DNA from: Actinomycetota bacterium
GTDB lineage: Bacteria > Actinomycetota > Acidimicrobiia > IMCC26256 > PALSA-610
Reading direction: 5' to 3'
Length of the DNA stretch: 64,000 bases
Assembly: GCA_005779395.1 (NCBI GenBank)
Contig: SXJP01000039.1
Span: 22,603-86,602, forward strand
The notes below the pieces were generated by a model, which saw only the letters and a list, made by a program, of their open reading frames with translations, did not search any database and was not told the origin of the DNA. Made by a program: the position numbers and the translations under genes. Shown here piece by piece: positions 22,186-46,468 of the stretch (the stretch's first letter is position 1; each line of letters begins with the position of its first letter).

Positions 22186-23535
22186 ATGCCGACAGCCGAC
22201 GCAATCAGCCACCTCTTCAAGCGGGCTGGATTCGGCCTCGACCTGGAGACCATTCAGCAGAAGTCCTTGCAACCACTAGAGACGACAGTTGAAGAACTAC
22301 TAGACGATTTCGTCGAAGTCGAGAAACCGACATTTCTCGACGACGCGAGCCTCGAAGACTGGGAACGCGAGTACCTGCTACGCCACTGGTGGCTAGACCG
22401 CATGGCAGGTTCGACTAAACCCCTCCAAGAAAAACTCACGCTCTTTTGGCACGGACATTTCGCTACAGAGAACTCGAAGGTAAACGACGTCCGCCTGATG
22501 TGGGATCAGAACAACCTGTTCCGGACATCCGGCATGGGCAATTTTCGTGAACTTGTTCAGAACATGTCGTTGCAAGCAGCGATGGTCTTATACCTAGACA
22601 ATGCCTATAACCACAAGAGTTCCCCGAATGAAAACTTTGCGCGCGAATTGCTTGAACTCTTCACTTTGGGAGTGAACCAGTACAGCCAGGCCGACGTCAT
22701 CACGGCCGCTCGAGCTTGGACAGGTCACAACATCAACGACTCCATGAGCCCGATGACATATGAGTTTCACAGCACCGCCCACGACTTCGGGACCAAGGAA
22801 TTCATGGGTGAGTCAAGGGCTTGGGACGGACCACAGATAATCGACTACCTACTTGAAGAAAACCTGGCCACGAAAATGATCGCTGCACGGCACATCACAC
22901 GAAAGTTATGGGTGTACTTCGCGGGCTCGACTCCACCGGAAGCAGTGATTGACGAACTGTCGCACGTGTTCTTCGATTCGGACCTAAACATCAAAGACTT
23001 GCTGCGAGCAGTCTTCCTAAGGCCCGAGTTTTATGGACGCCGGTCCCGGAATGGACTCGTCCGCAACCCGACAGAGTGGGTGGTCGCGATAATGAAAGCG
23101 ACCCACATCCCGATGACCGATCCAGGAGATGGCAGCGACCATTTTCACGCCTGGGGAATGGACGAGATGGGGATGGAACTCTTTCAACCACCGAACGTCG
23201 CTGGCTGGAAGAACAACGCTTACTGGCTTGGTACTACACAACACTGGGCTCGCGCTTCATGGATATGGAACTACCGCTGGACTCTGCATGAGGCGAACTT
23301 CTTGTTTAGTGACGTACAGGAAGTACTCGATGGACCTGGTGGCGATGCGCGCTACGAATTAGCGGTCGACAATGCCTTGGCCAAGTTCGGCATCTACACG
23401 CCGACTGCCAACACCAAATCTGTGCTCACGACTTGGATCAAGAAGCAGTACGAGGCTCCCGGCGAATGGCGCCAACGCGCTTGGTACCACGTCACGCAAC
23501 TAATCACGATGTCCCCAGATTTCATGATGGCCTAA
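22186..23535 (+). CDS. DUF1800 family protein
   Basis: 449 aa with LFWHGHFAT and LLELFTLG blocks typical of DUF1800. It has a good RBS (GAGGGGA) and is paired with a DUF1501 gene downstream. Confidence 0.8.
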   Translation: MPTADAISHLFKRAGFGLDLETIQQKSLQPLETTVEELLDDFVEVEKPTFLDDASLEDWEREYLLRHWWLDRMAGSTKPLQEKLTLFWHGHFATENSKVNDVRLMWDQNNLFRTSGMGNFRELVQNMSLQAAMVLYLDNAYNHKSSPNENFARELLELFTLGVNQYSQADVITAARAWTGHNINDSMSPMTYEFHSTAHDFGTKEFMGESRAWDGPQIIDYLLEENLATKMIAARHITRKLWVYFAGSTPPEAVIDELSHVFFDSDLNIKDLLRAVFLRPEFYGRRSRNGLVRNPTEWVVAIMKATHIPMTDPGDGSDHFHAWGMDEMGMELFQPPNVAGWKNNAYWLGTTQHWARASWIWNYRWTLHEANFLFSDVQEVLDGPGGDARYELAVDNALAKFGIYTPTANTKSVLTTWIKKQYEAPGEWRQRAWYHVTQLITMSPDFMMA

Positions 23536-23546
23536 AGGCGAACCCG

Positions 23547-24839
23547 ATGACCACGACCTTCAACCAAGACACCAACACAGATCGCCTCAGGATGAACTTG
23601 GACCTAGGGCGACGGCGCTTCCTCCAACTCGGTGCAGCCGGTGTCGGTGGACTCGCTCTGAATCCGCTGCTAAGCAATCTCAACGCATTCGCAGCACCAC
23701 AACTAGGACCGCACGATCCGATTCTCGTGCTAATCGAGATGGATGGTGGCAACGATGCTCTCAACATGCTCTGCCCGACGACCCAATCCGCGTACTACGA
23801 AAAGCGCCCGACGATCGCGATTCCAGAAGCTTCGCAGTTAGCTATAAATACCGAAGTAGGCCTGCACCCAAATCTCGCGAACATCAAGAAGCGCTACGAC
23901 AATGGCAAAGTCGCATTCATCCGCGGAGTCGGATCCAATCCAACCGATTTCAGCCACTTCACGTCGATGGCTAACTGGATGCAAGGTTGGGGTGGCGGAC
24001 AGCTTGCTTACCCAACTGGCTGGATCGGACGCTGGGCAGACAGCCTCTACAACGCCCAAAATGAAGCGCTGTACCAGGTAGTCATCGATCAGTCGGTGCC
24101 GCTACATCATGTTGGCGACAAGAATCAGGCCGCAGGACTTCCACTATGGATTGGCAGCGCTTTCGGCGTCGAGAGGGACACGCCCGATGAGATCCGAATG
24201 CTTAGGACTCTGTCAAAATATGCAGCCTCGGGTGAGAGTGGACGAGGTGACTGGGGCAATGAAATTGCTGAGAGCAACAAAGCACTTGTTCGTGTCAGTG
24301 GCAAGGTCCAACCAGCGTACGCAGGCGAATTTCCCGACGATTACTTCGCTCATCAAATGGCGCTCGCGGCGAATCTGATCAACGCCAATCTAGGGATACG
24401 TGTACTCACAGTCCGACTCGGCGGCTTCGATACCCATACCAACCAAGGTGGGATAGTGGGCGATCACGCGAACTTGATGAAAAGTCTCGATGACGGGATC
24501 AAAGCATTCTTCACCAAACTGTCTCTCAACTACAGACGTCAAACCCTCCTGATGTCGTTCTCGGAGTTTGGTCGACGACCAGAGGAGAACAGCGATCGTG
24601 GGACCGACCACGGGACAGCAGGCGTTGTGATGCTCATTGGCGATCTGGTCCGTGGAGGCGTCTACGGAAGCCAACCATCGCTGGCTTCAGCGGATCTCGT
24701 TGACTATGGCAATCTCAAACGATATGTTGATTTCCGTCGCGTTTATGCAAGCGTGTTGAAGAAATGGTTGCGAGCCGACCCCACCTCGCTGCTCGGAAGG
24801 AGCTACGACACGCTCGACTTCATCAAGGCCGCGCCGTAG
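23547..24839 (+). CDS. DUF1501 family protein (sulfatase-like fold) with twin-arginine signal
   Basis: ATG 23547 lies 12 bp after the DUF1800 stop. Tat motif GRRRFLQLGAAGVGG and C-terminal block FSEFGRRPEENSDRGTDHG. Confidence 0.85.
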   Translation: MTTTFNQDTNTDRLRMNLDLGRRRFLQLGAAGVGGLALNPLLSNLNAFAAPQLGPHDPILVLIEMDGGNDALNMLCPTTQSAYYEKRPTIAIPEASQLAINTEVGLHPNLANIKKRYDNGKVAFIRGVGSNPTDFSHFTSMANWMQGWGGGQLAYPTGWIGRWADSLYNAQNEALYQVVIDQSVPLHHVGDKNQAAGLPLWIGSAFGVERDTPDEIRMLRTLSKYAASGESGRGDWGNEIAESNKALVRVSGKVQPAYAGEFPDDYFAHQMALAANLINANLGIRVLTVRLGGFDTHTNQGGIVGDHANLMKSLDDGIKAFFTKLSLNYRRQTLLMSFSEFGRRPEENSDRGTDHGTAGVVMLIGDLVRGGVYGSQPSLASADLVDYGNLKRYVDFRRVYASVLKKWLRADPTSLLGRSYDTLDFIKAAP

Positions 24840-24867: not shown

Positions 24868-25647
24868 TTAGCGAGCGCTTAGCGACTCCCATCCTTGCGG
24901 AGGCTGTTCTAGGCGCCAATAGGCCTCATCTGGTCGTGAAGCGAGTTTCAGTGACAAGTTCCAGTCGTGCTCGAGGGCAAGTAGCTGGCTCGGATAGTGC
25001 TCGATTGCCGCAAGCTTGCGATCCCACGACTGGTCGGTCGATGGGCTCGCTTTCGTCGGCCAGAGGTTCGAACGAAACAACTCTGAGACTCGCCATGCGA
25101 GCATGCCGGGAATGAAGTTGTATCCCATGTCTTCGTAAGCGAACCACGAGAGTTCCGAGCCAAGTCCCTCGCGAGCGATGGTCGCTGCGTCGTGAGTCAC
25201 TCCATGGTCTGGGTTGGCCAAACCGAACGGGATAATGACGCTTGTTGGACTATGACTCGCGATGGCGTCGGCCAGCGTCGGGGCGATCAACGTGGGCGAA
25301 ACCGGGTTGCCGGCTTCGTTGTACGAGTGCTCGACAAAGTCAAGGTGATGAGCAATAGCACCAAGGCTCGACAGTGCCGAGATGTCTTCGGCTCTGCGCG
25401 CTGCCATCACATCATCGTCGGGAACGAATCCAGAGATGACATCCCAGGGCCGTTGCGGAACCGGGTATGCATCCGGATTACCAGCGAAAACTGTTATGAC
25501 TACCGCTCCTGGATGAGCGCTCAGTAACTGCCCACATCCGAGCACGGCATCATCTAGGTGTGGAGACACGACAACTATCCGTTCGAGTTCGCACTCCGCT
25601 ACGAGTCCCCAGCCGAGCATCGACTGCTCGGACTCGTTTCTACTCAT
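24868..25647 (-). CDS. PIG-L/LmbE family N-acetyl deacetylase
   Basis: 259 aa with the VVVSPHLDDAVLGCG metal-binding motif. Its ATG overlaps the upstream gene's end by 8 nt. Confidence 0.85.
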   Translation of the reverse strand: MSRNESEQSMLGWGLVAECELERIVVVSPHLDDAVLGCGQLLSAHPGAVVITVFAGNPDAYPVPQRPWDVISGFVPDDDVMAARRAEDISALSSLGAIAHHLDFVEHSYNEAGNPVSPTLIAPTLADAIASHSPTSVIIPFGLANPDHGVTHDAATIAREGLGSELSWFAYEDMGYNFIPGMLAWRVSELFRSNLWPTKASPSTDQSWDRKLAAIEHYPSQLLALEHDWNLSLKLASRPDEAYWRLEQPPQGWESLSAR

Positions 25648-26986
25648 ACAGCTTGTCTACATAGTCCGCTATACCAGCTTCGACTAGGCCCTGCATTTCG
25701 GTCATCTGCGCCATGCCGTAGACCGGCGCCAGGTCGCTTCCCGCGTCCGGGTTCTCTCGCAGATATTGAACACACGCGGCGAGGTCTGCCACGAGGCGCT
25801 CGACTACTCCCGTTTGGCAGTGTCGCAAAGTGACACACAGGTGCATTGCTGCCGGTTCTTGCAAGCCATTTAGCGACCATCCGCGTTTCGCCATCTCGTC
25901 GAGGACACCCCAGATGTTGACTTCATCTGACTTCCAAGCAACGTCAAAGAGTGGGTCACCGATTACCTCGATTCCATCGATCTCCCTCACCGCCGCCTTC
26001 ACTTGCGATGCGGTTTCGAGAATCTGCCTGACAGCTGCGAGATAACCATCTTCACCCATAGAAACCATCGCTGCCCAACACTGAGCGATGAGCGCCCCAG
26101 GACGCGACCCAGCAAACGTCGGCGAGTAATAGAGCCCGCCCGACCACGAGGCCGTCGTGTAGTACTGAAAATGTCGCAAGGCTTTGCCGCGATACAAGAC
26201 GACCGAGGTTCCCTTTGCCGCGTAGCCGTACTTATGTGTGTCGGCTGACATCGATGTGACCCCAGGTATCCGAAAATCAAATGGCGGTACTTCGTAGCCC
26301 AGTCTTTCTGCCCACGGCAAGACGAACCCACCGAGACATGCGTCGACATGCATTCCAACCCCGCGCTCGGAAGCTGCCTCGGCCAACGCCTCGATCGGGT
26401 CTACTAGACCATTCGGGTAGTTAGGCGCCGAGCCAACGACGACGACAGTGTTCGCGTTGATCGCAGCCGTCATGGCTACGACATCTGCGCGCCCATCGGG
26501 CCCAGGTTGAATCGACACCTTCTTGATGCCGAAGTATTGGCTCGCCTTGTCGAATGCAGCATGAGCGGTTGCTGGAATAACCATTTCTGGTTCGGTGATG
26601 CCGTTAGCGAATCCTCGATCGCGGTACGTCTTCATGGCGAGCAGAATGCTCTCGGTGCCTCCGCTACTCACTGTGCCAACAACGTCGTCGTCACCGTTGA
26701 GCATCGTCGCTGTCATCCGACAGATCTCGCCATCGAACTTTGAAATGCTCGGCCACAGGTCTGCATGTAGCGGATTCGTCTGGCTGTGCAACGCGTAGAC
26801 CTCGGACAAGAACGCTATGTGTTCTGGGTCACCGTGGTAGACGCTGCCGCTAGCGAACCCGTCTACCCATCGACTCTCTTCGCGGTCGCGCAAGTCGGTC
26901 ATCATCGCGAGGACATCTTTGTGGTCTCTGCCATGCAGAGGAATTTCGCGCACAGGCGGGAACTCATCTTTGTAGGGATTGCTCAA
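25640..26986 (-). CDS. PLP-dependent group II decarboxylase-fold enzyme, sphingosine-1-phosphate-lyase-like
   Basis: The PLP-lysine block SADTHKYGYAAKGTSVVLYR closely matches the SPL signature. TTG 26986 is preceded by GAGAGGAAG and lies 13 nt after the kinase stop. The track ORF to 27124 would overlap the kinase. Confidence 0.85.
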   Translation of the reverse strand: MSNPYKDEFPPVREIPLHGRDHKDVLAMMTDLRDREESRWVDGFASGSVYHGDPEHIAFLSEVYALHSQTNPLHADLWPSISKFDGEICRMTATMLNGDDDVVGTVSSGGTESILLAMKTYRDRGFANGITEPEMVIPATAHAAFDKASQYFGIKKVSIQPGPDGRADVVAMTAAINANTVVVVGSAPNYPNGLVDPIEALAEAASERGVGMHVDACLGGFVLPWAERLGYEVPPFDFRIPGVTSMSADTHKYGYAAKGTSVVLYRGKALRHFQYYTTASWSGGLYYSPTFAGSRPGALIAQCWAAMVSMGEDGYLAAVRQILETASQVKAAVREIDGIEVIGDPLFDVAWKSDEVNIWGVLDEMAKRGWSLNGLQEPAAMHLCVTLRHCQTGVVERLVADLAACVQYLRENPDAGSDLAPVYGMAQMTEMQGLVEAGIADYVDKLYE

Positions 26987-26999
26987 TTTCTTCCTCTCG

Positions 27000-28616
27000 T
27001 CAAGACGCCGCGTTCGCGTGGCGCTCGCGGTACCAGCCCTTAGTTTGTTTATGAAAAGCCCGGTACGCACCGTAAGCATCGTCGTACAACGAACGGTTCG
27101 CCGGCTTCGGCACGTAGGTGGCACTTATCTCGACGACATCGGCGATTCCGTCGATGTCAACGCGGCCGAGCGCGAGCGAGGCGAGCATCGCGGCGCCGCG
27201 CCCATTCGCTCGGATCGGATCTTTTACGCTTCGGATTTCACGGTCGAGAACGTCAGCAAAGATCTGCGCCCAAAATTCGGAGTTAGCTCCGCCGCCTACG
27301 AAGTTCAACCACGGGAATGGTCCACCGCGGAACTTCTCGACCCCAGCCAACAACCACCGAGTATTGAGAGCCACGCCTTCGAGAACGGACCGCACCAAGT
27401 CTGCTCGCGTGGTCGAAATCGAAACGTTGGCCCAAGCTGACCGCAGGTGGTGATCGTCGACGGGCGTGCGCTCCCCCACCAACCACGGGAAGAATAAAAC
27501 TCCGTTAGAACCTGGGGGCGCGCTCGCCGCGAGCTCATCAATTAGCGCGTACGCATTGGGCGGTGGCTCAGGAGTCCCGAGACAATCGGTCGGCCAAAGC
27601 ACGTTGTCGCGCAAAAAGTTGAGGCACTCTCCTGCCGTCTCTTGTTCATCGGCAATGAAGTAGCGACCCGGCAGCGGCGACGGCAAAGACGCGATGCCGC
27701 GCGATAAATCGGTCTTCTTCTCCAGAACATGGCCACTAACCCACGATGACGTACCGACGTAGAGATGTCCCTCGCCGTCTCGAACAGCGCCACTCCCGAT
27801 AGCAGCAGACTGCACGTCGGGCGTACCACCGATAACCGGAATACCGGTAGGCACACCGAGACTCGTCGCGACCTCAGGTAACACATCGCCGACAATGTCT
27901 GTGGCTGCGATCAGATCAGGAAATTTCCTGCGTTCGAACCCAACCGCTGCCAACAGGCTCGGGGAATAGTCGATCTTCGAAGGATCGCGATTATCTGTCA
28001 ACCAATGAACTGCTATTGAGTCATGCGTTGCGACCATGCGGCCAGTTAGTTGGTGGTTCAGCCAATCCTTAGGTTCGAGGTAACAGTGTGTTGCGGCGGC
28101 TATTTCAGGTCGATCTCTCTCGATCCATAAGACGTGGCTGATCGGATCTTTGCCTGAGTGTGCTGGCGCGCCACCAGTGAGAGATATCCAGCGCCGCAAC
28201 CTCTGCGGTGAGTAACCGCTGACGTTGACACGGCCTCGCACGATGTCGCGAGTAACGCCCGCGCCGCGTGCGTCCATCCAGATGACGGCATTCATTAATG
28301 GCTTACCCGAAGCGTCTACGGCGACGGTCCCTGACCACTGCGACGTCACCGAGATTCCGACAACACTCACAGGATCGACTACTTGCCTTGCCGCCAAACG
28401 TTGCGCCGATGCCAATATGCCTTCCCACCAGTCGGATGGTCGTTGCTCAACTCCGTCTGGCGGCACTAGGACAAGTTCGACCGGTTCGAATTCCCCAGCG
28501 ACGAAGTGACCTTTGGTCGTGAAGTACGCAACCTTCGGACCAGATGTTCCGAGATCGATCGTGAGAATGTGTTCGGTCACCGTGACGTCGCTATTCACTC
28601 TTGCGGCGCCGACCAT
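27000..28616 (-). CDS. FGGY-family carbohydrate kinase (xylulokinase-like)
   Basis: 538 aa with N-terminal ILTIDLGTSGPKV and the GTPDVQSAAIGSG / FVGGGANS FGGY blocks. The start is ambiguous: ATG 28616, GTG 28598 or GTG 28580. Confidence 0.88.
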   Translation of the reverse strand: MVGAARVNSDVTVTEHILTIDLGTSGPKVAYFTTKGHFVAGEFEPVELVLVPPDGVEQRPSDWWEGILASAQRLAARQVVDPVSVVGISVTSQWSGTVAVDASGKPLMNAVIWMDARGAGVTRDIVRGRVNVSGYSPQRLRRWISLTGGAPAHSGKDPISHVLWIERDRPEIAAATHCYLEPKDWLNHQLTGRMVATHDSIAVHWLTDNRDPSKIDYSPSLLAAVGFERRKFPDLIAATDIVGDVLPEVATSLGVPTGIPVIGGTPDVQSAAIGSGAVRDGEGHLYVGTSSWVSGHVLEKKTDLSRGIASLPSPLPGRYFIADEQETAGECLNFLRDNVLWPTDCLGTPEPPPNAYALIDELAASAPPGSNGVLFFPWLVGERTPVDDHHLRSAWANVSISTTRADLVRSVLEGVALNTRWLLAGVEKFRGGPFPWLNFVGGGANSEFWAQIFADVLDREIRSVKDPIRANGRGAAMLASLALGRVDIDGIADVVEISATYVPKPANRSLYDDAYGAYRAFHKQTKGWYRERHANAAS

Positions 28617-28899
28617 GGCCGAAGAACCCGCCTACCGGACGAGCATGTGCGTGGTAATGGTCGGGGATATTGCGCATGTTGTCGTCTACGTAGTGCTCGA
28701 AATCGAAATGCTCTGTCACGACGAGTTTGAGTTTCGTCATCATGTGCACCATGTCGACCTCGGGAGGCTCGACACCGTGGGGCTTCCAAACGACCATCGG
28801 CGTATAACAGATCTCACATTCGGCGATCCAGCAGATGTCGTCTTCGTGGAACCATTCGGTGATACGTGCGGCTTCGCAGAGGTCGCAGTGATGATCCAT
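28591..28899 (-). CDS. small Cys-rich HIT-like (histidine-triad-like) protein
   Basis: ATG 28899 is preceded by GGTGGAGG. The 102-aa product has CDLC...CEIC motifs and a C-terminal H-Y-H-A-H-A tract resembling the HxHxHxx HIT motif. The assignment is tentative. Confidence 0.5.
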   Translation of the reverse strand: MDHHCDLCEAARITEWFHEDDICWIAECEICYTPMVVWKPHGVEPPEVDMVHMMTKLKLVVTEHFDFEHYVDDNMRNIPDHYHAHARPVGGFFGHGRRRKSE

Positions 28900-29018
28900 A
28901 ACCTCCACCGTATGTGAAGTAACGGGCACGGAGCGACAAGGATCGGAACACAAATGGCCGAACTGGCCGTTCGACCCATTCCGAAGCCGTCCTGAAACAT
29001 GGCAGAATATGCAGGCTT

Positions 29019-30122
29019 ATGAAGGGTCTGATACTGGCCGGCGGTTCCGGCACCCGGCTTCGACCCATCACGCATACAGGCGCGAAGCAACTCGTCCCGA
29101 TTGCGAACAAGCCGATCATCTTCTACGGCATCGAAGCGATGGCTTCGGCTGGAATTACCGAAATTGGCGTTGTTGTAGGCGATAACAAGGACGAGTTCAT
29201 TACTGCGATGGGCGACGGTTCCCAGTTCGGAATCGAGATCACCTATATCCCGCAGGACGCACCACGGGGACTAGCTCACTGCGTTCTTATAGCAACGGAT
29301 TTCCTGGGTTCAGATGACTTCGTGATGTACCTCGGCGACAACATGTTGCAACAGGACCTTGCAGGGTTCGTCGATAAGTTCGAGCGTGAACGCAGCGCGC
29401 CACCAGAACTTCATGTTGAGCCGAAGCCAGCACCAGCAGCACAGATATTGCTCGCAGTCGTAGAAGATCCACGCCAATTTGGTGTTGCAGAGATTGGCCC
29501 ATCAGGAGAAGTCATTCGACTAATCGAGAAACCTGCAGACCCACCTAGCGATCTAGCGCTTGTCGGCGTGTACCTGTTTGATGAAAAAATTCATGAAGCC
29601 GTGCGCTCAATTAGCCCGAGCGAACGTGGCGAGCTGGAGATTACGGACGCCATCCAATGGCTTGCCGATCAGGGTCACCGAGTAGTACACGAAGTTCTCA
29701 ACGGTTGGTGGATCGACACAGGCAAAAAGGATCCACTTATCGAGTGCAACCGCTTGGTGCTCGAAACTCTCACACCTCGCAACGACGGCAAGATCGACGC
29801 GCAGAGCAAGATCGACGGACGGGTAGTTATCGAACAGGGTGCTGAACTCATAAACAGTTCTGTTCGAGGCCCAGCGATTATCGGACGCAATACCAAGCTC
29901 ATAGATACTTACGTCGGACCATTCACTTCCATCGCTTCTGATTGCACCGTTATCGACGCCGAGATAGAGCATTCTGTCGTGCTCGAACGGTGTCATATCG
30001 AAGGCGTCCATCGTCTTCAGGATTCCCTCATCGGCCGCGATGCAGAGGTAGTGCGCTCGTCTCTGCGACCGAAAGCGAGCAGATTGATGCTCGGCGACCA
30101 TTCACGCATCGAGTTGGAGTAG
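29019..30122 (+). CDS. rmlA: glucose-1-phosphate thymidylyltransferase (long form with C-terminal left-handed beta-helix)
   Basis: MKGLILAGGSGTRLRPITHTGAKQLVPIANKP N-terminus. At 367 aa it carries a hexapeptide-repeat-like C-terminal part. Confidence 0.9.
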   Translation: MKGLILAGGSGTRLRPITHTGAKQLVPIANKPIIFYGIEAMASAGITEIGVVVGDNKDEFITAMGDGSQFGIEITYIPQDAPRGLAHCVLIATDFLGSDDFVMYLGDNMLQQDLAGFVDKFERERSAPPELHVEPKPAPAAQILLAVVEDPRQFGVAEIGPSGEVIRLIEKPADPPSDLALVGVYLFDEKIHEAVRSISPSERGELEITDAIQWLADQGHRVVHEVLNGWWIDTGKKDPLIECNRLVLETLTPRNDGKIDAQSKIDGRVVIEQGAELINSSVRGPAIIGRNTKLIDTYVGPFTSIASDCTVIDAEIEHSVVLERCHIEGVHRLQDSLIGRDAEVVRSSLRPKASRLMLGDHSRIELE

Positions 30123-30130
30123 AAAAAGCC

Positions 30131-30697
30131 GTGGCCAAGCTGACCGAGTCGAATCTCATCAAAGGCGTGTTGCACGTTGAGCCAGTGGTACACGGCGACG
30201 AACGTGGTTTCTTCGTCGAGACATACCGCAGAGAATGGTTCCCGTTCGGTCGCGAGATGCTCCAGGGCAACCGTGGCGATCGCGCCGCTGGTTGTCTTGT
30301 CGGCCTGCACTATCACCTCCACCAGGCGGACTATTGGTATGTGCCGTACGGCACTGCGCGCGTCGTACTGCATGACCTTCGGCAGGGATCGCCGACAAAC
30401 GGCGTGACCGAATGCTTCGACCTCGGTGTCAACGCCGATGGCAAGAACGAACACCACGGTGTCTTCATCCCACCTGGTGTCGCCCACGGTTTTGCGAGCC
30501 TCACCGACATGACCATCACGTACCTCGTTGACAGCTACTACAACGCAGCCGACGAACTCGGAGTCGCGTGGAATGACCCAGAAATCAACGCTGACTGGGG
30601 CGTTACAGATCCGATACTTTCCAAGCGAGACCAGTCGAACCCGGAGAGGTCTGAACTAGGGCAACAGTGGCAGCCACACTTCGCGCTGCGCACCTAG
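30131..30697 (+). CDS. rmlC: dTDP-4-dehydrorhamnose 3,5-epimerase
   Basis: Cupin blocks HGDERGFF, GLHYH and GVAHGF. GTG 30131 lies just after the rmlA stop. The track ORF start (29942) lies inside rmlA. Confidence 0.88.
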   Translation: MAKLTESNLIKGVLHVEPVVHGDERGFFVETYRREWFPFGREMLQGNRGDRAAGCLVGLHYHLHQADYWYVPYGTARVVLHDLRQGSPTNGVTECFDLGVNADGKNEHHGVFIPPGVAHGFASLTDMTITYLVDSYYNAADELGVAWNDPEINADWGVTDPILSKRDQSNPERSELGQQWQPHFALRT

Positions 30698-30710
30698 GGG
30701 AGACACTGCC

Positions 30711-31670
30711 GTGAAGATGCTCGTTACCGGTGGGGCCGGATTCATTGGCTCGAACTTCGTCCGCTGGGTGTTCGCAAACACAGATGACGAAGTTGTTGTC
30801 TACGACGCGCTCACCTACGCAGGGAATCTCTCAACGCTGCGAGACGTCGACGACAACCCGCGCTTTTCGTTTGTACACGGCAACATCTGCGACCCAGGAC
30901 CGCTCGCTGCCTCTCTCAAGGGCTGTGACGCTGTTGTGCACTTCGCCGCAGAAAGTCACGTAGACCGCTCCATCGATGGCTCCGACGATTTCGTACACAC
31001 GAATTGTTTCGGCACCAACGTCGTTATGGACACAGCGCGTCGCGTCGGGGTGCCTCGCGCACTCCATGTCGGAACGGACGAGGTGTACGGCTCTGTCGAG
31101 GTCGGGTCATCGAAAGAATCAGACCCCCTCGAACCGCGTTCTCCTTACTCGGCGAGCAAAGCCGGTAGCGACCTCATCGCGCTCTCCTATCACCACACGC
31201 ATGGCCTCGATGTCGTCGTCACGCGTTGCACCAACAACTTCGGCGCATTCCAATATCCAGAAAAAGCGATCCCTCTATTTACAACGAACCTTCTCGACGA
31301 TAAGAAGATTCCGCTATACGGCGATGGCCTGAACGAGCGTGACTGGATCCACGTGGACGACCATTGCTCTGGCGTTTACACAGTGTTGCAACATGGAATC
31401 TCGGGCGAGATCTACAACATCGGTGCTGGCAATGAAACAACTAACAGGGTGCTCGTAGACAAACTGCTGGCACTAAATGGCTGTGGCGAAGAGATGGTCT
31501 CGTATGTCGCGGATCGCCTCGGGCATGACCGTCGTTATTCGGTTGATGTCGCAAAAGTTTCGGCCCTTGGATGGAAACGACAGCGCACCCTTGATGAGGC
31601 GTTAGAGCGCACTGTTGCGTGGTATGCCGATAATCGCTGGTGGTGGGAACCACTTCGGGCGAGGGGCTAA
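30711..31670 (+). CDS. rmlB: dTDP-glucose 4,6-dehydratase
   Basis: VTGGAGFIGSNFV Rossmann motif, YSASKAGSD catalytic motif, 319 aa. Confidence 0.95.
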   Translation: MKMLVTGGAGFIGSNFVRWVFANTDDEVVVYDALTYAGNLSTLRDVDDNPRFSFVHGNICDPGPLAASLKGCDAVVHFAAESHVDRSIDGSDDFVHTNCFGTNVVMDTARRVGVPRALHVGTDEVYGSVEVGSSKESDPLEPRSPYSASKAGSDLIALSYHHTHGLDVVVTRCTNNFGAFQYPEKAIPLFTTNLLDDKKIPLYGDGLNERDWIHVDDHCSGVYTVLQHGISGEIYNIGAGNETTNRVLVDKLLALNGCGEEMVSYVADRLGHDRRYSVDVAKVSALGWKRQRTLDEALERTVAWYADNRWWWEPLRARG

Positions 31671-31674
31671 CGCG

Positions 31675-32526
31675 ATGCGCCTCGTAGTTACTGGCGCGGG
31701 CGGGATGCTCGGCCAAGAAGTCGTCGGTATCTCGACCGGCGTCCATGAAATCCTCGCCTTTGACCATGCATCGCTCGATATCGGTGACGCCGCCGCAGTC
31801 AGTGCGACCCTCGATGCAAGCGGCGCTGAATGCATCATCAATTGCGCCGCATACACGGCTGTCGACAACTGTGAAAGCAACACTGAAACGGCGTACCGCA
31901 TCAACAGCGACGGCCCAGCAAATCTCGCTGCAGTTGCGCACCGACTAGGCGCACGACTAGTTCATGTCTCAACTGATTACGTTTTCGATGGCACGAAGCC
32001 AACTCCGTACGTCGAAACTGACAAGACCAACCCGCAATCGGTGTACGGAGCGTCGAAACTCAGCGGGGAACACGCCGTGCTCGAACTTGGTCACGCCGGC
32101 ATTGTCGCTCGGACTGCATGGGTGTTCGGTCAACACGGAGCGAACATGGTCAAGACTGTTCTACGTATCAAAGACACCGTTCCGACCTTAAGCTTCGTAG
32201 ACGACCAACGTGGCTCTCCTACGAGTGCAGCTGACCTTGCAACGATGCTCATAGCACTCGCCGATTCAAAGCACTCTGGACTATTTCATGTGACAAACGC
32301 TGGCAACGTCAGCTGGTTCGAGTTTGTCCAACAGATCTTGGCGCTCACAGGTGATGACCCTGCTCGTGTGCTTCCGATAAAGACGTCGGATCTCAGTCCC
32401 CCACGCCCGGCGCCACGCCCAGCAAACAGCGTCTTAGATAATGCCGCGTTGCGAGCCTGCGGGCTCGCTCCCTTGCGGAGCTACGAAGCCGCACTCGCGG
32501 ACGTAATCACCCAGCTAACGATCTGA
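31675..32526 (+). CDS. rmlD: dTDP-4-dehydrorhamnose reductase
   Basis: ATG 31675 gives MRLVVTGAGGMLG. YGASKLSGE catalytic motif, 283 aa. Confidence 0.93.
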   Translation: MRLVVTGAGGMLGQEVVGISTGVHEILAFDHASLDIGDAAAVSATLDASGAECIINCAAYTAVDNCESNTETAYRINSDGPANLAAVAHRLGARLVHVSTDYVFDGTKPTPYVETDKTNPQSVYGASKLSGEHAVLELGHAGIVARTAWVFGQHGANMVKTVLRIKDTVPTLSFVDDQRGSPTSAADLATMLIALADSKHSGLFHVTNAGNVSWFEFVQQILALTGDDPARVLPIKTSDLSPPRPAPRPANSVLDNAALRACGLAPLRSYEAALADVITQLTI

Positions 32527-32808
32527 TGCCGGTGCTTCTGCACGTATGCGTCGTTGCATTAATGCGCGCACGGCACCATCGAAAATCACTAGAGGGATAA
32601 GTATTCGCGTAGCTGCTGAGACCTCGTCAAGAAGCCACGACAGGTAGGCAGCCGCCGAAAACAATGCGACGAGAGCGACAGCGAGGCCAGCTTGTTGGCG
32701 TAGAGCGCTGCCTCTCTTGGGCACCGGAAACCGCTCTGGATCCCGATACAACATCAGTATCAAAAAGACTACGAGCCAGATTACAATTTGGCTTTCAACC
32801 AAGTACAT
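32515..32808 (-). CDS. small 3-TM membrane protein, partner/immunity-like paralogue I5
   Basis: ATG 32808 has GGTGGA 7 nt upstream. Three hydrophobic segments and a basic tail (MQRRIR). It shares its architecture with I1-I4. Confidence 0.55.
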   Translation of the reverse strand: MYLVESQIVIWLVVFLILMLYRDPERFPVPKRGSALRQQAGLAVALVALFSAAAYLSWLLDEVSAATRILIPLVIFDGAVRALMQRRIRAEAPASDR

Positions 32809-32830
32809 CACTTAGTCCACCTACATGTGT

Positions 32831-33136
32831 TCAGTATCCAACCAACTTTCGATTGCGCCTAGCCGACAAGAATATGTCGAGAGCAATCAGCGGAACTCCT
32901 GACACATACTCAAATCCCCAACGGATATTCACCAAATCGATGTGCAGAATCGCGACGACGCCGTAGACACCCGTCAGCACAAATGCCCCAGCAAAATATG
33001 CAACAAACAACGGGAATACGACCGGCAATTTCTCGGGTTTCGAACCGCACTTACAAAAAGGATTGGGAAACATTCGGTCGCTAGTGCGCATCACAAGTAC
33101 GAAATAGCCAAGTAGCAAGATCACAGCGCGCTGCAC
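32831..33136 (-). CDS. small 3-TM membrane protein, partner/immunity-like paralogue I4
   Basis: GTG 33136, 101 aa, hydrophobic segments and a basic tail (SARRNRK). Its RBS is the weakest of the five. Confidence 0.5.
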   Translation of the reverse strand: MQRAVILLLGYFVLVMRTSDRMFPNPFCKCGSKPEKLPVVFPLFVAYFAGAFVLTGVYGVVAILHIDLVNIRWGFEYVSGVPLIALDIFLSARRNRKLVGY

Positions 33137-33197: not shown

Positions 33198-33464
33198 TCA
33201 TGACGCGGGCGTTCGGCGCCGACGGCGCCAGCCCGAAGCGTCCTGGAGAGCGAACAACCCAACTAGCGGAAGAGTCGAGAGTTCAACGAGATACCACTCT
33301 GCGCCCTCGAAAATATAGAAGTACCCCACAAACCACACTGCCGCCGCGACGACAATACGAATACGAGATGCAAGCGGCGGTTTCGGCCGTTTCGCATTCC
33401 AACCTTCGCCACGCCTCACGTTACTGATGATGTCGAAAACCGAACATATGAGTAGAAAAATCAT
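33198..33464 (-). CDS. small 3-TM membrane protein, partner/immunity-like paralogue I3
   Basis: ATG 33464 has GGAGG 6 nt upstream. 88 aa with three hydrophobic segments and tail SGWRRRRR. Confidence 0.6.
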   Translation of the reverse strand: MIFLLICSVFDIISNVRRGEGWNAKRPKPPLASRIRIVVAAAVWFVGYFYIFEGAEWYLVELSTLPLVGLFALQDASGWRRRRRTPAS

Positions 33465-33509: not shown

Positions 33510-33686
33510 CTAGTTCTTCTTCGCAACATCTTTGAAGTCGATACCGCCATCTTTGGTTGCTCCTACACCGACTTTCATAGTGAGGCAGCCGTCTGGTTTG
33601 CGCTCGACCGCTTCTTCAAGATCGTTCGAAGTGTCGTTCATCCACGACACAGACAATTCCTCGCCATCGATGGGATGTCGGTTCAA
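33510..33686 (-). pseudogene. orphan C-terminal module (copy A3) of the effector-like family, ended by in-frame TAG
   Basis: My own translation (58 codons, so below the track cut-off) gives LNRHPIDGEELSVSWMNDTSNDLEEAVERKPDGCLTMKVGVGATKDGGIDFKDVAKKN*. This is homologous to the last ~55 aa of A1 and A2. The stop falls before the conserved YC. Confidence 0.6.
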
Positions 33687-33964
33687 TTAGGAGGCCGAGA
33701 AGCGGACCGAACAGAGTTTGCATACCGTCGTTGCCATACGTGTACGGCAAAAAAGACAACCAGACCCGGCGACATCGCAAGTTCACGCATGTACCAATCC
33801 TGGTTTGGTGGGGCGAGCTCTACCGCCAAGAGAACGGGCGCTATCCACGCTAAAGAAAGCACTCTCAGAGGTAGAGGAAGGAACGAAAAATCGAATCCAG
33901 GAAATGAACCACGTGCGAGGCGACTGATAACTGCAAAAACGATTACAACCAATATCGTGATCAT
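33683..33964 (-). CDS. small 3-TM membrane protein, partner/immunity-like paralogue I2
   Basis: ATG 33964 is preceded by TAGGAG, which overlaps the A2 stop. 93 aa with three hydrophobic segments and tail HVWQRRY. Confidence 0.6.
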   Translation of the reverse strand: MITILVVIVFAVISRLARGSFPGFDFSFLPLPLRVLSLAWIAPVLLAVELAPPNQDWYMRELAMSPGLVVFFAVHVWQRRYANSVRSASRPPN

Positions 33965-41563: not shown

Positions 41564-42361
41564 TTACGACTTGGCTACGAACGCCGCGGCCATTTGTGCA
41601 CATAGCGCTGCAGGATCGGGACAACGGGAGAACGCTTCGCCGACAAGTACGGCGTCAAGGCCCGCGTCGGCCATTCTCTGTGCATCAGCCACGGTTCTGA
41701 CTGCCGACTCCCCAATGCGTATCACTTCTGTTGGGAGAAGCGATCCAAGGCGTTCAGCGATTCCGAGGTCTTCCGAGAAGCTTTGCAGACTCCTGTTGTT
41801 GATACCAACGATGCGCGCTCCTGCGCTAAGTGCGCGTTCAATCTCTGCTTCATCGTGCGTCTCCACAAGCGCAGCTAGGCCTAGGTCCGTCGCCGCCTCT
41901 CTGAGATCTCTAAGGGTGGCGTCGTCTAGTGCTGCAACGATCAGCAACACAGCGTCAGCCCCGAGAGCGCGCGCCTCGAACAACTGGATTTCCGCGATGA
42001 CGAAGTCTTTCCGGAGAATTGGTAGCGCGACCGCTTCGCGCGTGAGCGTCAAATCTTGGGCTCTGCCACCGAAGTATGGGCCGTCCGTTAGGACGCTTAG
42101 CGCCGACGCACCGCCGGATTCAAAATCTGAGGCGCGTTTCGAAGGGTCGAGATCGGGATCTAGATCTCCCTTGCTCGGCGACCGTCGCTTGATTTCAGCG
42201 ACTACAGCTAGGTGCCCATCAGGTCGTCGCAGGCTGCCCGCGAAGTCACGCGTCGGCAATGCCTCTACGGCAGCGCGGCGTATGGCGTTGCGAGTCTGTG
42301 GTTGGTGTAGCAGCGTGACCTCGTCGCGTTTGGTCGCGAGGATGTCGTCAAGGATTCCCAT
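41564..42361 (-). CDS. trpC: indole-3-glycerol phosphate synthase
   Basis: 265 aa with EIKRRSPSKG, ILRKDF and VGINNR blocks. Confidence 0.93.
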   Translation of the reverse strand: MGILDDILATKRDEVTLLHQPQTRNAIRRAAVEALPTRDFAGSLRRPDGHLAVVAEIKRRSPSKGDLDPDLDPSKRASDFESGGASALSVLTDGPYFGGRAQDLTLTREAVALPILRKDFVIAEIQLFEARALGADAVLLIVAALDDATLRDLREAATDLGLAALVETHDEAEIERALSAGARIVGINNRSLQSFSEDLGIAERLGSLLPTEVIRIGESAVRTVADAQRMADAGLDAVLVGEAFSRCPDPAALCAQMAAAFVAKS

Positions 42362-42396: not shown

Positions 42397-43989
42397 TTAA
42401 CGCGGGAAGGTCACCGCGCTCGTGAAGTAATCGCCCTTGCGAGCCGAGCCCACGACGCCGGGGCTGTTCTCTGTCCAATGCACGCTTCCGCTGTTGCTCG
42501 GCGCGTTCATCGCGTCACCAAATCTGGTCAATGCTCCCGCACTCAGATATTTTCCTACGTCTTCGCCCGGCGACCCAACCAATAGTTCGGCGAGGCCATC
42601 GGCGTCTGTATCGACTGCGCCAAGTGTTGCCCCAAACCAGCCACTACGCGTCGGCGCCCCAAGGACGCCATCGGTATTCAGGGTGAACACCACAGAATCA
42701 GTTGCCGTTGCCCCTGCGACCGAAGGGAAGAGGACGTGTGCCTGACCACCGTCAATAGCGCCGCTGAGATCCTCGAATGGCACGCCGATCACAAGAACGT
42801 CATCTGCGCCACCGCCATCGACATCTGCTAACCGAGCGATCAAGACCGAGTGACCGAATTCTTGTCCACGTCGAGATCCACCAGGGATACCAGTCGTCTC
42901 CTGGTTCAACATCTGGCTCATAGTCAAACCGAGAAGATCGGCGTCGCCAGTCGCAACGAATACCGCGCCAGCAAAAGCAACTGCCCCGGAAGCCTCACCT
43001 GGTGCGCCAACAGCGAGATCATCGATCCCGTCGAGGTTGAGGTCACCTGCAGCGATGCTCCACCCGAAAAAATCAGAGACCTGTCTGCCCGCGGAACCGA
43101 CGTTGCGAAAGTTGCGTTCCGTCAACGTCTGACTCGTCGAAGGATCTAATGCAGTGCCGGAAGCCCCGCGCAAAATGTGTACAGCGCCAGCACCCGCGTG
43201 CGTCGTCGCGAAGTCGCCAGGAACACCAATAGCGAGATCATCAATCTCGTCGCCGCCGAAGCGGCCAACTGCGAGCGAGTAACCGAAATTGTCGCTCAAC
43301 TCAGGGATACCTGCGATTCCATTCGTGGCTTGCGTGAATCTTCGCGAGCCAATATCGGTAAGGCCACATACGCAACCATTCAGCACCGCCACTGCGCCAG
43401 CGCGACGGCGGCCGTTGATTCTCTCTCCAGGTATTCCAATGGCGAGATCGTCGAGCAGGTCGTCGTTGAAATCGCCCGCAGCGAGCGCAGTACTGAACAG
43501 CTCCGCAGGTGCAGTGGTACTAGCTATTTGCCCAACGTCTTGATGCCACAGCTCGGATCCGGCTGCGGTGAGGCCGTTCGCCGATCCGTAAAGCACTAGG
43601 ACACTGCCAGCAGCCCTCTTGGTAGCTATGACGTCGCCAGGTATCCCTGCGGCTAGATCGTCGTATCCATCGCCATTGAAGTCACCGGAGGCAAGACTCG
43701 CGCCTAGAGACTCTGCGTCATGGGTGATGCCGGGGATCCCAGCCGTCGCCTGATCGAAAAATAGCAAGCGGTTCGCAGCGGCCGGCTCCGCTCCATAAAA
43801 GACATAAACGGCACCAGCGCCACGGTTCTCGCCAGCAGCACCTACGGCGTAGTCGCCGAATCCGTCTCCGTCGAAATCCGGATGGGTTCCCGGCATTGTG
43901 GCAGCGGGGACCACCTCAATCGCGACGAACGTGGACGACATCGATATGAGGAGCACGAGTGTGCGCAGAACGCGCAAGTAAGACTTCAC
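42397..43989 (-). CDS. secreted FG-GAP repeat (integrin-alpha-like beta-propeller) protein
   Basis: N-terminal signal peptide, then seven repeats of the DxDGDGxxDLAxGxPG type (e.g. GDFNGDGYDDLAAGIPGD, GDLNLDGIDDLAVGAPGE). Confidence 0.85.
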   Translation of the reverse strand: MKSYLRVLRTLVLLISMSSTFVAIEVVPAATMPGTHPDFDGDGFGDYAVGAAGENRGAGAVYVFYGAEPAAANRLLFFDQATAGIPGITHDAESLGASLASGDFNGDGYDDLAAGIPGDVIATKRAAGSVLVLYGSANGLTAAGSELWHQDVGQIASTTAPAELFSTALAAGDFNDDLLDDLAIGIPGERINGRRRAGAVAVLNGCVCGLTDIGSRRFTQATNGIAGIPELSDNFGYSLAVGRFGGDEIDDLAIGVPGDFATTHAGAGAVHILRGASGTALDPSTSQTLTERNFRNVGSAGRQVSDFFGWSIAAGDLNLDGIDDLAVGAPGEASGAVAFAGAVFVATGDADLLGLTMSQMLNQETTGIPGGSRRGQEFGHSVLIARLADVDGGGADDVLVIGVPFEDLSGAIDGGQAHVLFPSVAGATATDSVVFTLNTDGVLGAPTRSGWFGATLGAVDTDADGLAELLVGSPGEDVGKYLSAGALTRFGDAMNAPSNSGSVHWTENSPGVVGSARKGDYFTSAVTFPR

Positions 43990-44056: not shown

Positions 44057-44929
44057 TTAGTCCAGCGTGATGGTTGTTGTTTGTGACACTCGCAGCGCAG
44101 CGCCTTGCTCGACTTCACGCCGCAACGTTGCTAACGCGACAGGCCCACAACGTGGCGACACCGCCGAACTCGAAACTACGCCGACAACCTTGCCGTCAAG
44201 GTTGACTACCTCGTCTCCAACCGACACTTCGACACTGGGGCGTAGACGGCGCATGGTCTTGTTGACATGCCCACGACTGTCGATTCTGCACACGAGTTCC
44301 TGGCCTAAGAAGCAACCCTTCGTGAAACTGACTGCCGTGACTTCAAGCGCCGCTTCCTGCGCAATTGTGTCCGCGTCGATATCTGCGGGTTGACGAGCGA
44401 CGCCGAGTTCGATCCGCAATGTCTCTAACGCCACTAAGTCGGCTTCCGTCACATCTGGAATGCTCATTGAGGAGATCAGAGATGTCGGGCCCAACAGCTC
44501 ATGCCCCGGACTGGTCGGCCAATCGATGGTTGCTACGTGCACGCCATCGGGAACATTCGGAGCTACGCCGACAGAGTTCGGGCCCCTCACGACCAAGGCC
44601 TGATATCTCGCGGAGCAGTCTTCGATTCTGACGTCGACTCTTATCTTGAACCTCGCTAGACCGACCGCTAGCAGCGGCCCGACTTCCGGCTCGCACCGCA
44701 ACCAGAACATGTCCTCAGCTACTCGTACGACGTGAAAGTCTGCTGTGAGTTTGCCTTGAGGTTCGAGGAGTAACGAGTGACGCGTCTCACCTACTCCGAT
44801 TCCGTCGAGGTCTTGACTCACAAGCGCTTGCAAAAACTTGAGAGCATCCGGTCCAGCGACTTCGACGAGTCCCACAGCGTCGATGCGGACGTAAGCCACG
44901 TCGTTGCAGAGTTGTTCGAAACCCTTCAA
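44057..44929 (-). CDS. ygfZ: folate-binding YgfZ/GcvT-family protein
   Basis: 290 aa with the signature TKGCFLGQE (KGCYxGQE type). Its start overlaps the trpE stop by 4 nt. Confidence 0.8.
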   Translation of the reverse strand: MKGFEQLCNDVAYVRIDAVGLVEVAGPDALKFLQALVSQDLDGIGVGETRHSLLLEPQGKLTADFHVVRVAEDMFWLRCEPEVGPLLAVGLARFKIRVDVRIEDCSARYQALVVRGPNSVGVAPNVPDGVHVATIDWPTSPGHELLGPTSLISSMSIPDVTEADLVALETLRIELGVARQPADIDADTIAQEAALEVTAVSFTKGCFLGQELVCRIDSRGHVNKTMRRLRPSVEVSVGDEVVNLDGKVVGVVSSSAVSPRCGPVALATLRREVEQGAALRVSQTTTITLD

Positions 44930-46464
44930 CTTGGCCTCACTGCAGAACCGGATCCGAAGATGCGATTAGCTGTGGCCGCAGCGCTCAGCAGTGCACGCGC
45001 CTTGTTAGAACATTCGAGATCTTCATCGGCCGGATCGCTATCGGCGACAACTCCAGCACCAGCTTGAACCGAAGCCTTACCGTCGCTGAAAAACATTGTG
45101 CGAATCGCGATAGCGATGTCGAGATTGCCTGAGAAATCGAAATAGCCGACAACACCTGCATATGGACCACGCTTGGCCGGCTCTAGTTCATCGATTATTT
45201 CCATAGCCCGAACCTTTGGCGCTCCGCTCACCGTACCGGCAGGGAAGGTCGCGCGTACCACATCGATGACTGACTTATCGGGTCGGAGTTCCCCAGAAAC
45301 CTGACTCGTCATGTGCATGACATGGCTGTAACGCTCGAGGGTCATGAGCTCATCAATTTGTTCGGACCCGAATTTGACGATGCGCCCGAGGTCATTACGG
45401 GCGAGGTCTACGAGCATTACGTGCTCAGCGCGCTCCTTCGGATGCTCGATCAACTCGGCGGCGAGTCTCTGGTCGTGTTCCTCCGTCCGCCCACGCTTGC
45501 GTGTCCCAGCGATCGGTCTACCGATAACCCTTCCGTCCTGCAACGACACAAGTGCCTCGGGAGAACTCCCGACTGTCGTCACGCCTCCAGCACGCAGGAA
45601 ATACATGTACGGCGACGGATTGACAAGACGGAGTACGCGGTAGAGCGCTAGCGGATCTGGGGGATCACACAAATCGAAGCGTTGGGCTAACACCACCTGA
45701 AAGATGTCGCCAGCAAGAATGTGTTCCTTTGCTGCAGCTACTGCCTCTGCATATTCGTCCGCTGGAGTGCGTCGCACAACCTCGGCTACATCGCCCGTAT
45801 CGCCAGGCTCGGGGATCGCAGCGTCGTAAGTGGTCGTAGGGTTCGGCGCGCTCAGCGACGCGAGTGTGCGCTCGATCCTCTCCGACGCGCGTTCATACTG
45901 CGAGCGCAAGACTTCTTCTGTGGAACCGGGATCTATATAGCAGTTTTCGATCAACGACATGCGTTGAGCGAAGTGGTCGAACGCTGCTACGGAAGCACAA
46001 AGCGCAAGGACAGCGTCTGGCATCCCCTGATCATCAGGTGGAGTGTTCTCGAGTATTTCGATCTCGCGCACCGTGTCGTAGCCGAGTAGTCCGACTATGC
46101 CACCGTGGAACGGCGCCAGGCCGTCGATTCGAGGAGCGCGGTATTTGACCAGCATCGCCTCGAGCGCAGCGAGGATGCCGTTGTCGGTCGGTACGTCCTC
46201 TAACTGTTCGCCAGAGAACTCAACGTTTGTTCCGCGTACGACAATTGTCGTCACTTGATCCCATCCGAGAAAAGACCAGCGCCCCCAACGCTCGGCATGT
46301 TCTACGGATTCGAGCAGGAAGCCATCGCGGTCTCCAACAAGTTTCATGAAAGCGGACAAGGGCGTTTCGAGATCGGCAAGAACTTCGCACCAAACAGGAA
46401 TAACAGTGTGATCGACAGCCAGCGCCACAAACTCGTCGGCGCTTAGACGCAGCGGAATTGCCAT
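44926..46464 (-). CDS. trpE: anthranilate synthase component I
   Basis: ATG 46464 lies 4 nt after the hisI stop. 512 aa with chorismate-binding blocks ([32 protein letters not shown]). Confidence 0.93.
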
Positions 46465-46468
46465 TTGT

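Follow-up and report, generated by a model that had tools for sequence, protein, structure and literature searches.

The stretch analyzed in this study, 64,000 nt of an Acidimicrobiia chromosome (contig SXJP01000039.1; the whole stretch is referred to as the window), carries on its minus strand a cluster of four co-directional genes, which occupy 28899 down to 24868 with junctions that overlap or leave gaps of 13 nt at most, as judged from the list of open reading frames (ORFs) and direct reading of the sequence. Two of the four, encoding an FGGY-family kinase and a pyridoxal phosphate (PLP) enzyme of the sphingosine-1-phosphate (S1P) lyase (SPL) family, were found to form a conserved gene pair, which spans at least six phyla (Actinomycetota, Chloroflexota, Myxococcota, Desulfobacterota, Bacteroidota, and Bacillota). 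We lean slightly toward the view that this pair constitutes a catabolic module of kinase followed by lyase, in which the product of the kinase is the substrate of the lyase.

The pair was recognized in a scan of GTDB genomes, one for each species, by means of an SPL alignment, from which the 80 best loci were kept; the lyases of these loci are 57-67% identical to that of the window. Among these, the 72 loci with enough flanking sequence were considered assessable, and were searched with the proteins of the window. The SPL loci originated from Acidimicrobiia and Microthrixaceae, many Chloroflexota, Myxococcota, Desulfobacterota, metagenome-assembled genomes of Cytophagia and Calditrichaceae, and Bacillota; the cultured carriers within Myxococcota include Archangium gephyra (locus L084) and the Myxococcaceae isolate GXIMD 01537 (L079). 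An FGGY orthologue (44-61% identity in this search; orthologues next to SPL range over 44-80% overall) was located adjacent to and in the same direction as the SPL gene in 70 of the 72 assessable loci, upstream in 69 and downstream in one. In a metagenomic Symbiobacterium-like locus, of which the lyase is 86% identical to the bacterial lyase StSPL, the SPL gene is followed after 5 nt by the FGGY kinase gene, indicating that the pair also exists in the StSPL lineage, with its gene order inverted. The pairwise divergences of kinase and lyase co-vary, with a Spearman coefficient of 0.79 for 57 loci. After unbiased clustering of 825 neighboring ORFs, no third family was detected in more than 8 of 85 loci, and a third universally conserved partner, such as ceramidase, aldehyde dehydrogenase, or an alternative kinase, was thus rejected.

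The initial annotation had treated all four genes as a single pathway unit. The neighborhood surveys ruled out the quartet as a conserved unit: the four genes stand together only in the window and in two other loci, L002 and L011, and outside Acidimicrobiia only the FGGY and SPL genes persist. The gene for a small Cys/His-rich protein and that for a PIG-L-family deacetylase also occur without the SPL gene, whereas the kinase-lyase pair is co-conserved elsewhere. The adjacency of this pair strongly backs another element of the same annotation, that the kinase would feed a phosphorylated 2-amino-1,3-diol to the lyase.

As judged from its sequence, the PLP enzyme is a true member of the S1P lyase family, and a new member of a known family. 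In comparison with PDB entries, the highest similarity was observed for StSPL (3MAD; E 3.6e-173; 59% identity), followed by the human (1e-115), Burkholderia (1e-113), and yeast (3e-106) enzymes, the values extending down to 1e-74 within the set of human, Burkholderia, yeast, and Legionella SPLs. In contrast, the similarity to decarboxylases in the PDB was only about 1e-18 to 1e-13 (2e-18 for MfnA, 8e-15 for glutamate decarboxylase), and the NCBIfam models of both decarboxylases scored far under their cut-offs. An identity as amino-acid decarboxylase of glutamate or tyrosine type was ruled out by these scores, and the original assignment to SPL rather than to decarboxylases was upheld, the E-value being 3.6e-173 for StSPL and about 1e-18 for the decarboxylases. 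The SPL-type motif SADTHKYGYAAKGTSVVLY is also present.

The active sites were compared by transferring the list of StSPL residues from a structural review (PMC10243590) to the window lyase by alignment. The PLP lysine K252 (K311 in StSPL) is identical, and so are H251 (H310), D215 (D274), H142 (H201), G110 (G168), T111 (T169), and S294 (S353), the phosphate and phosphoethanolamine ligands Y50 (Y105), N71 (N126), H74 (H129), and K258 (K317), and the C-terminal tyrosine Y423 (Y482). Altogether, 12 of the 13 PLP, phosphate, and catalytic residues of StSPL are identical, the sole change being S48 in place of A103.

The lyase aligns from about StSPL residue 57 or 58 onward, and the Nt-FLEX segment (StSPL 1-57), or the membrane anchor of the eukaryotic enzymes, is missing. 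The Acidimicrobiia SPLs are 448-466 aa in length, and those of Chloroflexota are about 500 aa with an amphipathic, non-transmembrane N-terminus; no hydrophobic helix was found in the relatives of the lyase. The 448-aa window lyase is identical to a protein in public data (P0001). StSPL itself (P0241) has been annotated and studied as a protein of 507 aa, with a disordered, proline-rich Nt-FLEX at 1-57. The closest relatives of StSPL (82-87% identical; P0242-P0250; L093 6001-7386) are called as 458-461 aa and the Acidimicrobiia forms as given above, indicating that the N-terminal segment of StSPL is not conserved in its clade.

The kinase carries both FGGY domains (FGGY_N, PF00370, 144 bits, E 9e-42; FGGY_C, PF02782, 86 bits, E 3e-24). 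Its nearest relatives are xylulo-, glucono-, and glycerol kinases, and among PDB entries E. coli XylB is the closest (E 5e-38). The score was under every NCBIfam equivalog cut-off, the best being that for XylB (TIGR01312; 243 bits vs a cut-off of 380), and none of the characterized specificities represented by equivalog models, XylB, GntK, GlpK, AraB, FucK, RhaB, or LsrK, could be assigned. Among 57 subfamily members, the IDLGTSGPK loop and the GTPD261 motif including the catalytic Asp are invariant or nearly so, and the motifs TxQWSGTVxVD, HWxTDNR, GTSSWLTCHVPFKKTD, and NEQExAG are near-invariant; within the first of these, QWSGT aligns with QMHGA of E. coli XylB. The alignment to XylB revealed these subfamily motifs and small insertions, and no interpretable specificity determinant. 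A further motif, WLTCHVPFKKTD, has P in 55 and F in 52 of the 57 members. At the corresponding site (27717-27737; residues about 288-293 when counted from GTG 28598), the window kinase and those of L001, L094, and L096 read WVSGHV[LR][ED]KKTD. TCHVPF gives way to SGHV[LR][ED] in the kinases of the window and its closest relatives; charged residues here take over from hydrophobic ones immediately behind the GTSS loop, a change specific to the clade that might alter the specificity of the kinase.

The organization of the locus is as follows.

28591 to 28899, minus strand: gene for the small Cys/His-rich protein, 102 aa; first gene of the transcription unit
27000 to 28616, minus strand: gene for the FGGY-family kinase, 526-538 aa depending on the start; core of the conserved pair
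25640 to 26986, minus strand: gene for the S1P-lyase-family PLP enzyme, 448 aa with TTG 26986 as start; core of the conserved pair
24868 to 25647, minus strand: gene for the PIG-L/LmbE-family N-deacetylase, 259 aa (ATG 25647) or 250 aa (ATG 25620); lineage-specific accessory
28900 to 29018, no strand: divergent intergenic region of 119 bp between the small gene and rmlA
29019 to 32526, plus strand: rmlA-rmlC-rmlB-rmlD, for dTDP-L-rhamnose synthesis; divergent neighbor, context only

The four-gene layout on the minus strand, the coordinates of its junctions, and its divergence from rmlACBD, all given in the initial annotation, were confirmed by the ORF list and by reading of the sequence. The ORF of the small gene extends over 28591-28953, with a likely start at ATG 28899, located 7 nt after GGAGG, and a stop at TAG 28593-28591. 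With respect to this stop, the three candidate starts of the kinase give an overlap of 26 nt (ATG 28616), an overlap of 8 nt (GTG 28598), or a gap of 10 nt (GTG 28580). The kinase stops at TGA 27002-27000, and the TTG start of the lyase lies 13 nt further at 26986, with GAGAGGAAG ahead of it; the maximal ORF of the lyase extends to 27124, this only upstream extension overlapping the kinase gene by 125 nt. The lyase gene terminates at TAG 25642-25640, in an 8-nt overlap with the PIG-L ATG 25647. As conservation among six PIG-L orthologues begins at Met10, however, the true PIG-L start may be ATG 25620, leaving a gap of 19 nt after the lyase gene. No promoter or terminator signal above shuffle expectation was detected by scanning inside the cluster. 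The sole signal in the 119-bp intergenic region was a weak sigma-70-like match, no better than in shuffled sequences, and the region is presumed to be the promoter region for both divergent units.

The PIG-L protein matches PF02585 with 47.3 bits against a gathering score of 28.2, and no NCBIfam model matches it. The nearest PDB entries, the deacetylases of teicoplanin and A40926 pseudoaglycones, are distant (E about 1e-15). The motifs SPHLDDAVL and GLANPDHxxTH, including H30, D32, and D33 of PHLDD and the PDH148 motif, are invariant in the six orthologues, and by analogy with MshB and Orf2* we take the H-x-D-D and D-H residues to be zinc ligands. The PIG-L gene follows SPL in L002, L009, and L011 (SPL identity 64-66%), and is missing in the closest relatives of the window, L001, L094/L095, and L096 (SPL identity 80-84%), in L014, L051, L057, and L010, and in all the non-Acidimicrobiia loci. 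It occurs also with FGGY without SPL, or with the small gene alone, and its inclusion as a fixed member of the pathway was not sustained. In a metagenome scan with PIG-L, two Acidimicrobiia contigs (L097 1210-3837 and L098 650-3247) showed the order small gene, FGGY, PIG-L, with a gap of 72 nt and no SPL in between, and L099 (173-1064) showed only the small gene and PIG-L.

The small protein of 102 aa contains CxxC...CxxxxCxxC, with five Cys, six His, and DHYHAHARP invariant, and has 965 homologues of 67-100% identity. It was labeled HIT-like in the initial annotation. No sequence match was found in Pfam, NCBIfam, or PDB, profile search included; the AlphaFold (AF2) model has a pLDDT of 78, and the top Foldseek match of this model is a HIT protein at a non-significant level (E 0.19, probability 0.66, TM 0.45). 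The label is thus plausible as a weak similarity of the predicted fold, and receives no backing from sequence matches. By profile search, the family (for instance L089 6001-6327 and the proteins P0376, P0392, P0371, and P0483), which has no Pfam model, includes 732 representatives at E<=1e-3, is 70-80% identical within Acidimicrobiia, and keeps CxxC, CxxxxCxxC, and DHYHAHARPxGGFFGH invariant. Its genes are often located immediately behind trpA, and fusions to TrpA, a phosphoribosyltransferase, and a dual-specificity phosphatase (DSPc) were also observed. Among the SPL loci, the small gene is restricted to those of Acidimicrobiia. It occurs without FGGY or SPL in L088-L092, and directly after trpA in the freshwater Acidimicrobiia loci L089-L092, and its membership in the pathway could not be maintained. 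The small gene looks like a conserved chromosomal neighbor in Acidimicrobiia, with the module sitting behind its promoter.

After the small gene, Acidimicrobiia loci carry one of five arrangements: the small gene alone, with PIG-L, with FGGY and PIG-L, with FGGY and SPL, or with all three. What lies from the small gene to the conserved MFS and redoxin genes is thus a variable, cassette-like region. The rml genes on the other side were identified by rmlA_long (TIGR01208, 449 bits vs a cut-off of 320) and by the domains dTDP_sugar_isom, GDP_Man_Dehyd/Epimerase, and RmlD_sub_bind. Both this variability and the adjoining rmlACBD in Acidimicrobiia loci would fit the absence of any shared pathway, the genes being juxtaposed by chance in a variable region, or a biosynthetic role in phosphoethanolamine supply or in modification of a rhamnose envelope glycan. 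We consider this very improbable. Chance cannot account for the adjacency of FGGY and SPL in 70 of 72 loci, given that the contexts are unrelated and both gene orders occur, and for the pair this explanation is largely refuted. With respect to a biosynthetic role, the rml adjacency is confined to Acidimicrobiia and the rml genes are absent from all the non-Acidimicrobiia SPL loci, indicating that the rmlACBD linkage is lineage-restricted synteny; in addition, the frequent presence of adjacent importers (see below) argues for catabolism.

The data show directly the gene order, the family memberships, the conservation of the active site, and the pairing across phyla; that the kinase supplies the lyase with its substrate, what this substrate is, and what PIG-L does are inferred. 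The FGGY kinase, in place of the usual DAGK-type sphingosine kinase, would phosphorylate a 2-amino-1,3-diol with ATP at its primary hydroxyl (C1). The SPL-type PLP enzyme would then form an external aldimine with the amine and cleave the C2-C3 bond by retro-aldol reaction, yielding phosphoethanolamine and an aldehyde. A kinase step is a logical requirement, since the amine must have a phosphate ester beside it for SPL chemistry to proceed. In the window, PIG-L, translationally coupled to the lyase or closely following it, would free the amine and thereby admit N-acylated forms, and the module would be transcribed behind the unrelated gene for the conserved small Cys/His protein. The most likely substrates would be sphingoid long-chain bases and their N-acyl derivatives, either scavenged from the environment or turned over.

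Genes neighboring the pair provide clues to the substrate. In five Anaerolineales loci (L017, L040, L045, L047, and L083; for instance L083 4233-10072), a tight operon was found for a Zn-dependent alcohol dehydrogenase (ADH), FGGY, SPL, and an amidase. The best solved relative of this amidase is the Arabidopsis fatty-acid amide hydrolase (FAAH), over the full length (E 1.7e-121; 2e-64 for GatA), and the Zn-ADH resembles AdhP and the aldehyde reductase Ahr, below the cut-off. By its predicted enzymes, the operon reads as deacylase, kinase, lyase, and aldehyde reductase, which would fit a lipid amide. The Symbiobacterium-like locus has an M20 amidohydrolase (TIGR01891, above the cut-off) after the kinase. 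Three unrelated amide hydrolases, PIG-L, the plant-FAAH-like amidase, and M20, have thus been recruited beside the pair in three phyla, each as a single lineage event, and an upstream N-deacylation step is therefore plausible. The sequence of deacylase, kinase, and lyase drawn in the initial annotation gains from these three recruitments; PIG-L itself is patchy in its distribution.

Within the kinase-to-lyase model, we prefer, modestly, long-chain sphingoid bases over soluble amino-polyols as substrates; the former are favored by the biochemistry of StSPL and by the operon with the FAAH-like amidase and aldehyde reductase, the latter by the FGGY family and by the TRAP, MFS, and EamA transporters. 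We tentatively propose that the bacterial kinase so far missing for sphingoid bases or sphingoid-like amino-diols is found in this distinct FGGY subfamily, which, together with SPL, would make a compact, horizontally mobile module for catabolism or detoxification in the six or more phyla listed above; the usual SphK/DAGK enzyme would be displaced by the first lipid-directed FGGY kinase, and PIG-L, the FAAH-like amidase, or M20 would admit ceramide-like N-acyl substrates.

The preference for sphingoid bases is only modest because the evidence on substrate is conflicting, and several observations weigh against the model. We know of no FGGY kinase that acts on a lipid, all the characterized ones using C3-C7 sugars or polyols. 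Ceramidase, fatty-aldehyde dehydrogenase, and acyl-CoA synthetase were not co-conserved with the pair in the neighbor clustering. SPL stands without adjacent FGGY in L018 and L069, where no substitute kinase was found nearby, and FGGY stands with PIG-L in the absence of SPL in L097 and L098. The Acidimicrobiia lyases are without the N-terminal segment of about 50 residues found in the Chloroflexota forms and StSPL. Transporter genes lie beside the pair on the same strand, namely TRAP DctP (three Myxococcota loci), MFS (L012/L015/L078, L033, and L066), EamA (L007/L013), and ABC (L052/L081), which argues for uptake of an exogenous, probably water-soluble compound. Furthermore, the sole characterized bacterial sphingoid kinase, PG1348 of Porphyromonas gingivalis, is SphK1-like (PMC9045371).

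The occurrence of TRAP, MFS, EamA, and ABC transporters in the same operons of several lineages also bears on a different reading, close to the initial annotation, in which a soluble N-acetylated amino-polyol or amino sugar (2-amino-2-deoxyalditol, serinol, or threoninol) is degraded to phosphoethanolamine and a short hydroxy-aldehyde. PIG-L would remove the acetyl group, FGGY would phosphorylate C1, and the SPL-like lyase would cleave the product. To our knowledge, small sugars or polyols are the substrates of all the characterized FGGY kinases, of which xylulo-, glucono-, and glycerol kinases are the nearest here, and all the characterized PIG-L enzymes act on GlcNAc-type amides, the nearest PDB relatives of PIG-L being GlcNAc-pseudoaglycone deacetylases. 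The lyases are also soluble, without a transmembrane helix (PMC3148216 for StSPL). This reading appears rather unlikely, however, in view of the retention by the lyase of the active site of StSPL, an enzyme with a narrow hydrophobic access tunnel that cleaves C18 S1P (PMC10243590), and of the FAAH-like lipid amidase and aldehyde-reductase-like ADH in the Anaerolineales operon. PIG-L is absent from most loci, indicating that N-acetylation is no general feature of the substrate, no sugar-catabolic partner was co-conserved in the neighbor clustering, and we know of no abundant natural substrate of that kind. The amino-sugar substrate put forward in the initial annotation thus lost ground: nothing specific to an amino sugar was detected, the nearest characterized relative of the lyase cleaves the lipid S1P, and one lineage carries the FAAH homologue and the aldehyde-reductase-like ADH.

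The FAAH-like amidase and Zn-ADH that flank the pair in Anaerolineales could also be read as a B12-independent route for ethanolamine or N-acylethanolamine, in which FGGY makes phosphoethanolamine after the amidase step, and the PLP enzyme acts as phospho-lyase to produce acetaldehyde, ammonia, and phosphate, followed by ADH. Plant FAAH hydrolyzes N-acylethanolamines, and phosphoethanolamine binds the active site of StSPL as an external aldimine (PMC10243590). In the crystals of StSPL, however, phosphoethanolamine is a stable bound product that undergoes no further elimination (PMC10243590), which makes this route hardly probable. Ethanolamine is without the C3 hydroxyl used by SPL chemistry, and the amidase and ADH context is confined to one lineage. 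Phosphoethanolamine phospho-lyases known to date are of another PLP family, and ethanolamine kinases are members of the choline-kinase family.

The window otherwise represents ordinary core chromosome, with uvrB, polA, fabF/accD, the trp operon, and motA/B. A DUF1800/DUF1501 gene pair (22186-24839, plus strand) is convergent to the four-gene cluster. A gene for an SGL (SMP-30/gluconolactonase-like) protein is located between DUF1800 and the MFS transporter gene in L001, L094, and L096, and is missing in the window; in L002, the SGL domain and the MFS transporter form a single fused protein of 972 aa. Just beyond rmlD, four tandem small ORFs lie on the minus strand (32515-32811, 32831-33136, 33198-33464, and 33683-33964), encoding 88-101 aa with hydrophobic N-termini at a slightly lower GC content (0.535), and may represent paralogous small membrane proteins. 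Within the tryptophan operon, a gene for a 530-aa FG-GAP-repeat protein (42397-43989, minus strand) is flanked by the genes for indole-3-glycerol-phosphate synthase (41564-42361) and anthranilate synthase (44057-46593).

Bacterial SPL homologues have been crystallized and serve as surrogates in drug discovery, and StSPL has been tested as a therapeutic enzyme. StSPL cleaves S1P in vitro, its natural function was stated to be unknown by its authors in 2011, and catabolism of environmental sphingolipids was their guess (PMC3148216). The kinase beside the lyase offers a direct handle on this function, as its substrate range should reveal what these bacteria degrade; with the pair at hand, what bacterial S1P lyases are for can be approached by straightforward enzymology, for which cultured carriers exist. 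If the substrate is indeed a sphingoid base, a lipid specificity is added to the FGGY family, turnover of sphingolipids is widespread in bacteria inhabiting soil, sediment, or sludge (such as Anaerolineae, Acidimicrobiia including Microthrixaceae, Myxococcota, and Desulfobacteraceae), and the two genes provide a metagenomic marker for this turnover. If the substrate is instead a soluble amino-polyol, a new catabolic route for a small molecule is defined. The finding overturns nothing; the degradative logic is known from the eukaryotic catabolism of sphingoid bases, with a different kinase family.

Among known systems, StSPL (PDB 3MAD/3MAU), human SGPL1, and yeast Dpl1p share family and fold with the window lyase. 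Like StSPL, the window lyase is predicted to be soluble, without a transmembrane helix (PMC3148216), but it starts at about StSPL residue 57, without Nt-FLEX, and has Ser for A103. Unlike the SPLs reported so far, it is encoded together with an FGGY kinase, an arrangement not found in the literature searched: the full-text search for a link between FGGY kinase and SPL yielded no paper, and the Burkholderia SPL paper discusses no kinase or gene context. The view of the initial annotation that this combination corresponds to no described pathway agrees with this search. PIG-L shares the H-x-D-D and D-H motifs and an above-cut-off Pfam domain with the PIG-L/LmbE enzymes MshB, teicoplanin Orf2*, and Dbv21, but its similarity to solved members does not go beyond about E 1e-15, and the context of kinase and lyase has not been reported for this family. 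The kinase has the two-domain architecture, DLGTS phosphate loop, and G[ST]PD Asp of the FGGY kinases XylB, GlpK, GntK, AraB, and LsrK, but its subfamily consistently has a PLP lyase as partner where sugar isomerases or aldolases would be usual, and has invariant motifs of its own. The proposed route follows the same logic of C1-hydroxyl phosphorylation and retro-aldol cleavage as the eukaryotic pathway from sphingosine kinase through S1P lyase to fatty aldehyde dehydrogenase. In eukaryotes and in P. gingivalis (dhSphK1, PG1348), however, the kinase belongs to the DAGK/SphK family, whereas the kinase of the window is of the FGGY family, with the actin fold of sugar kinases.

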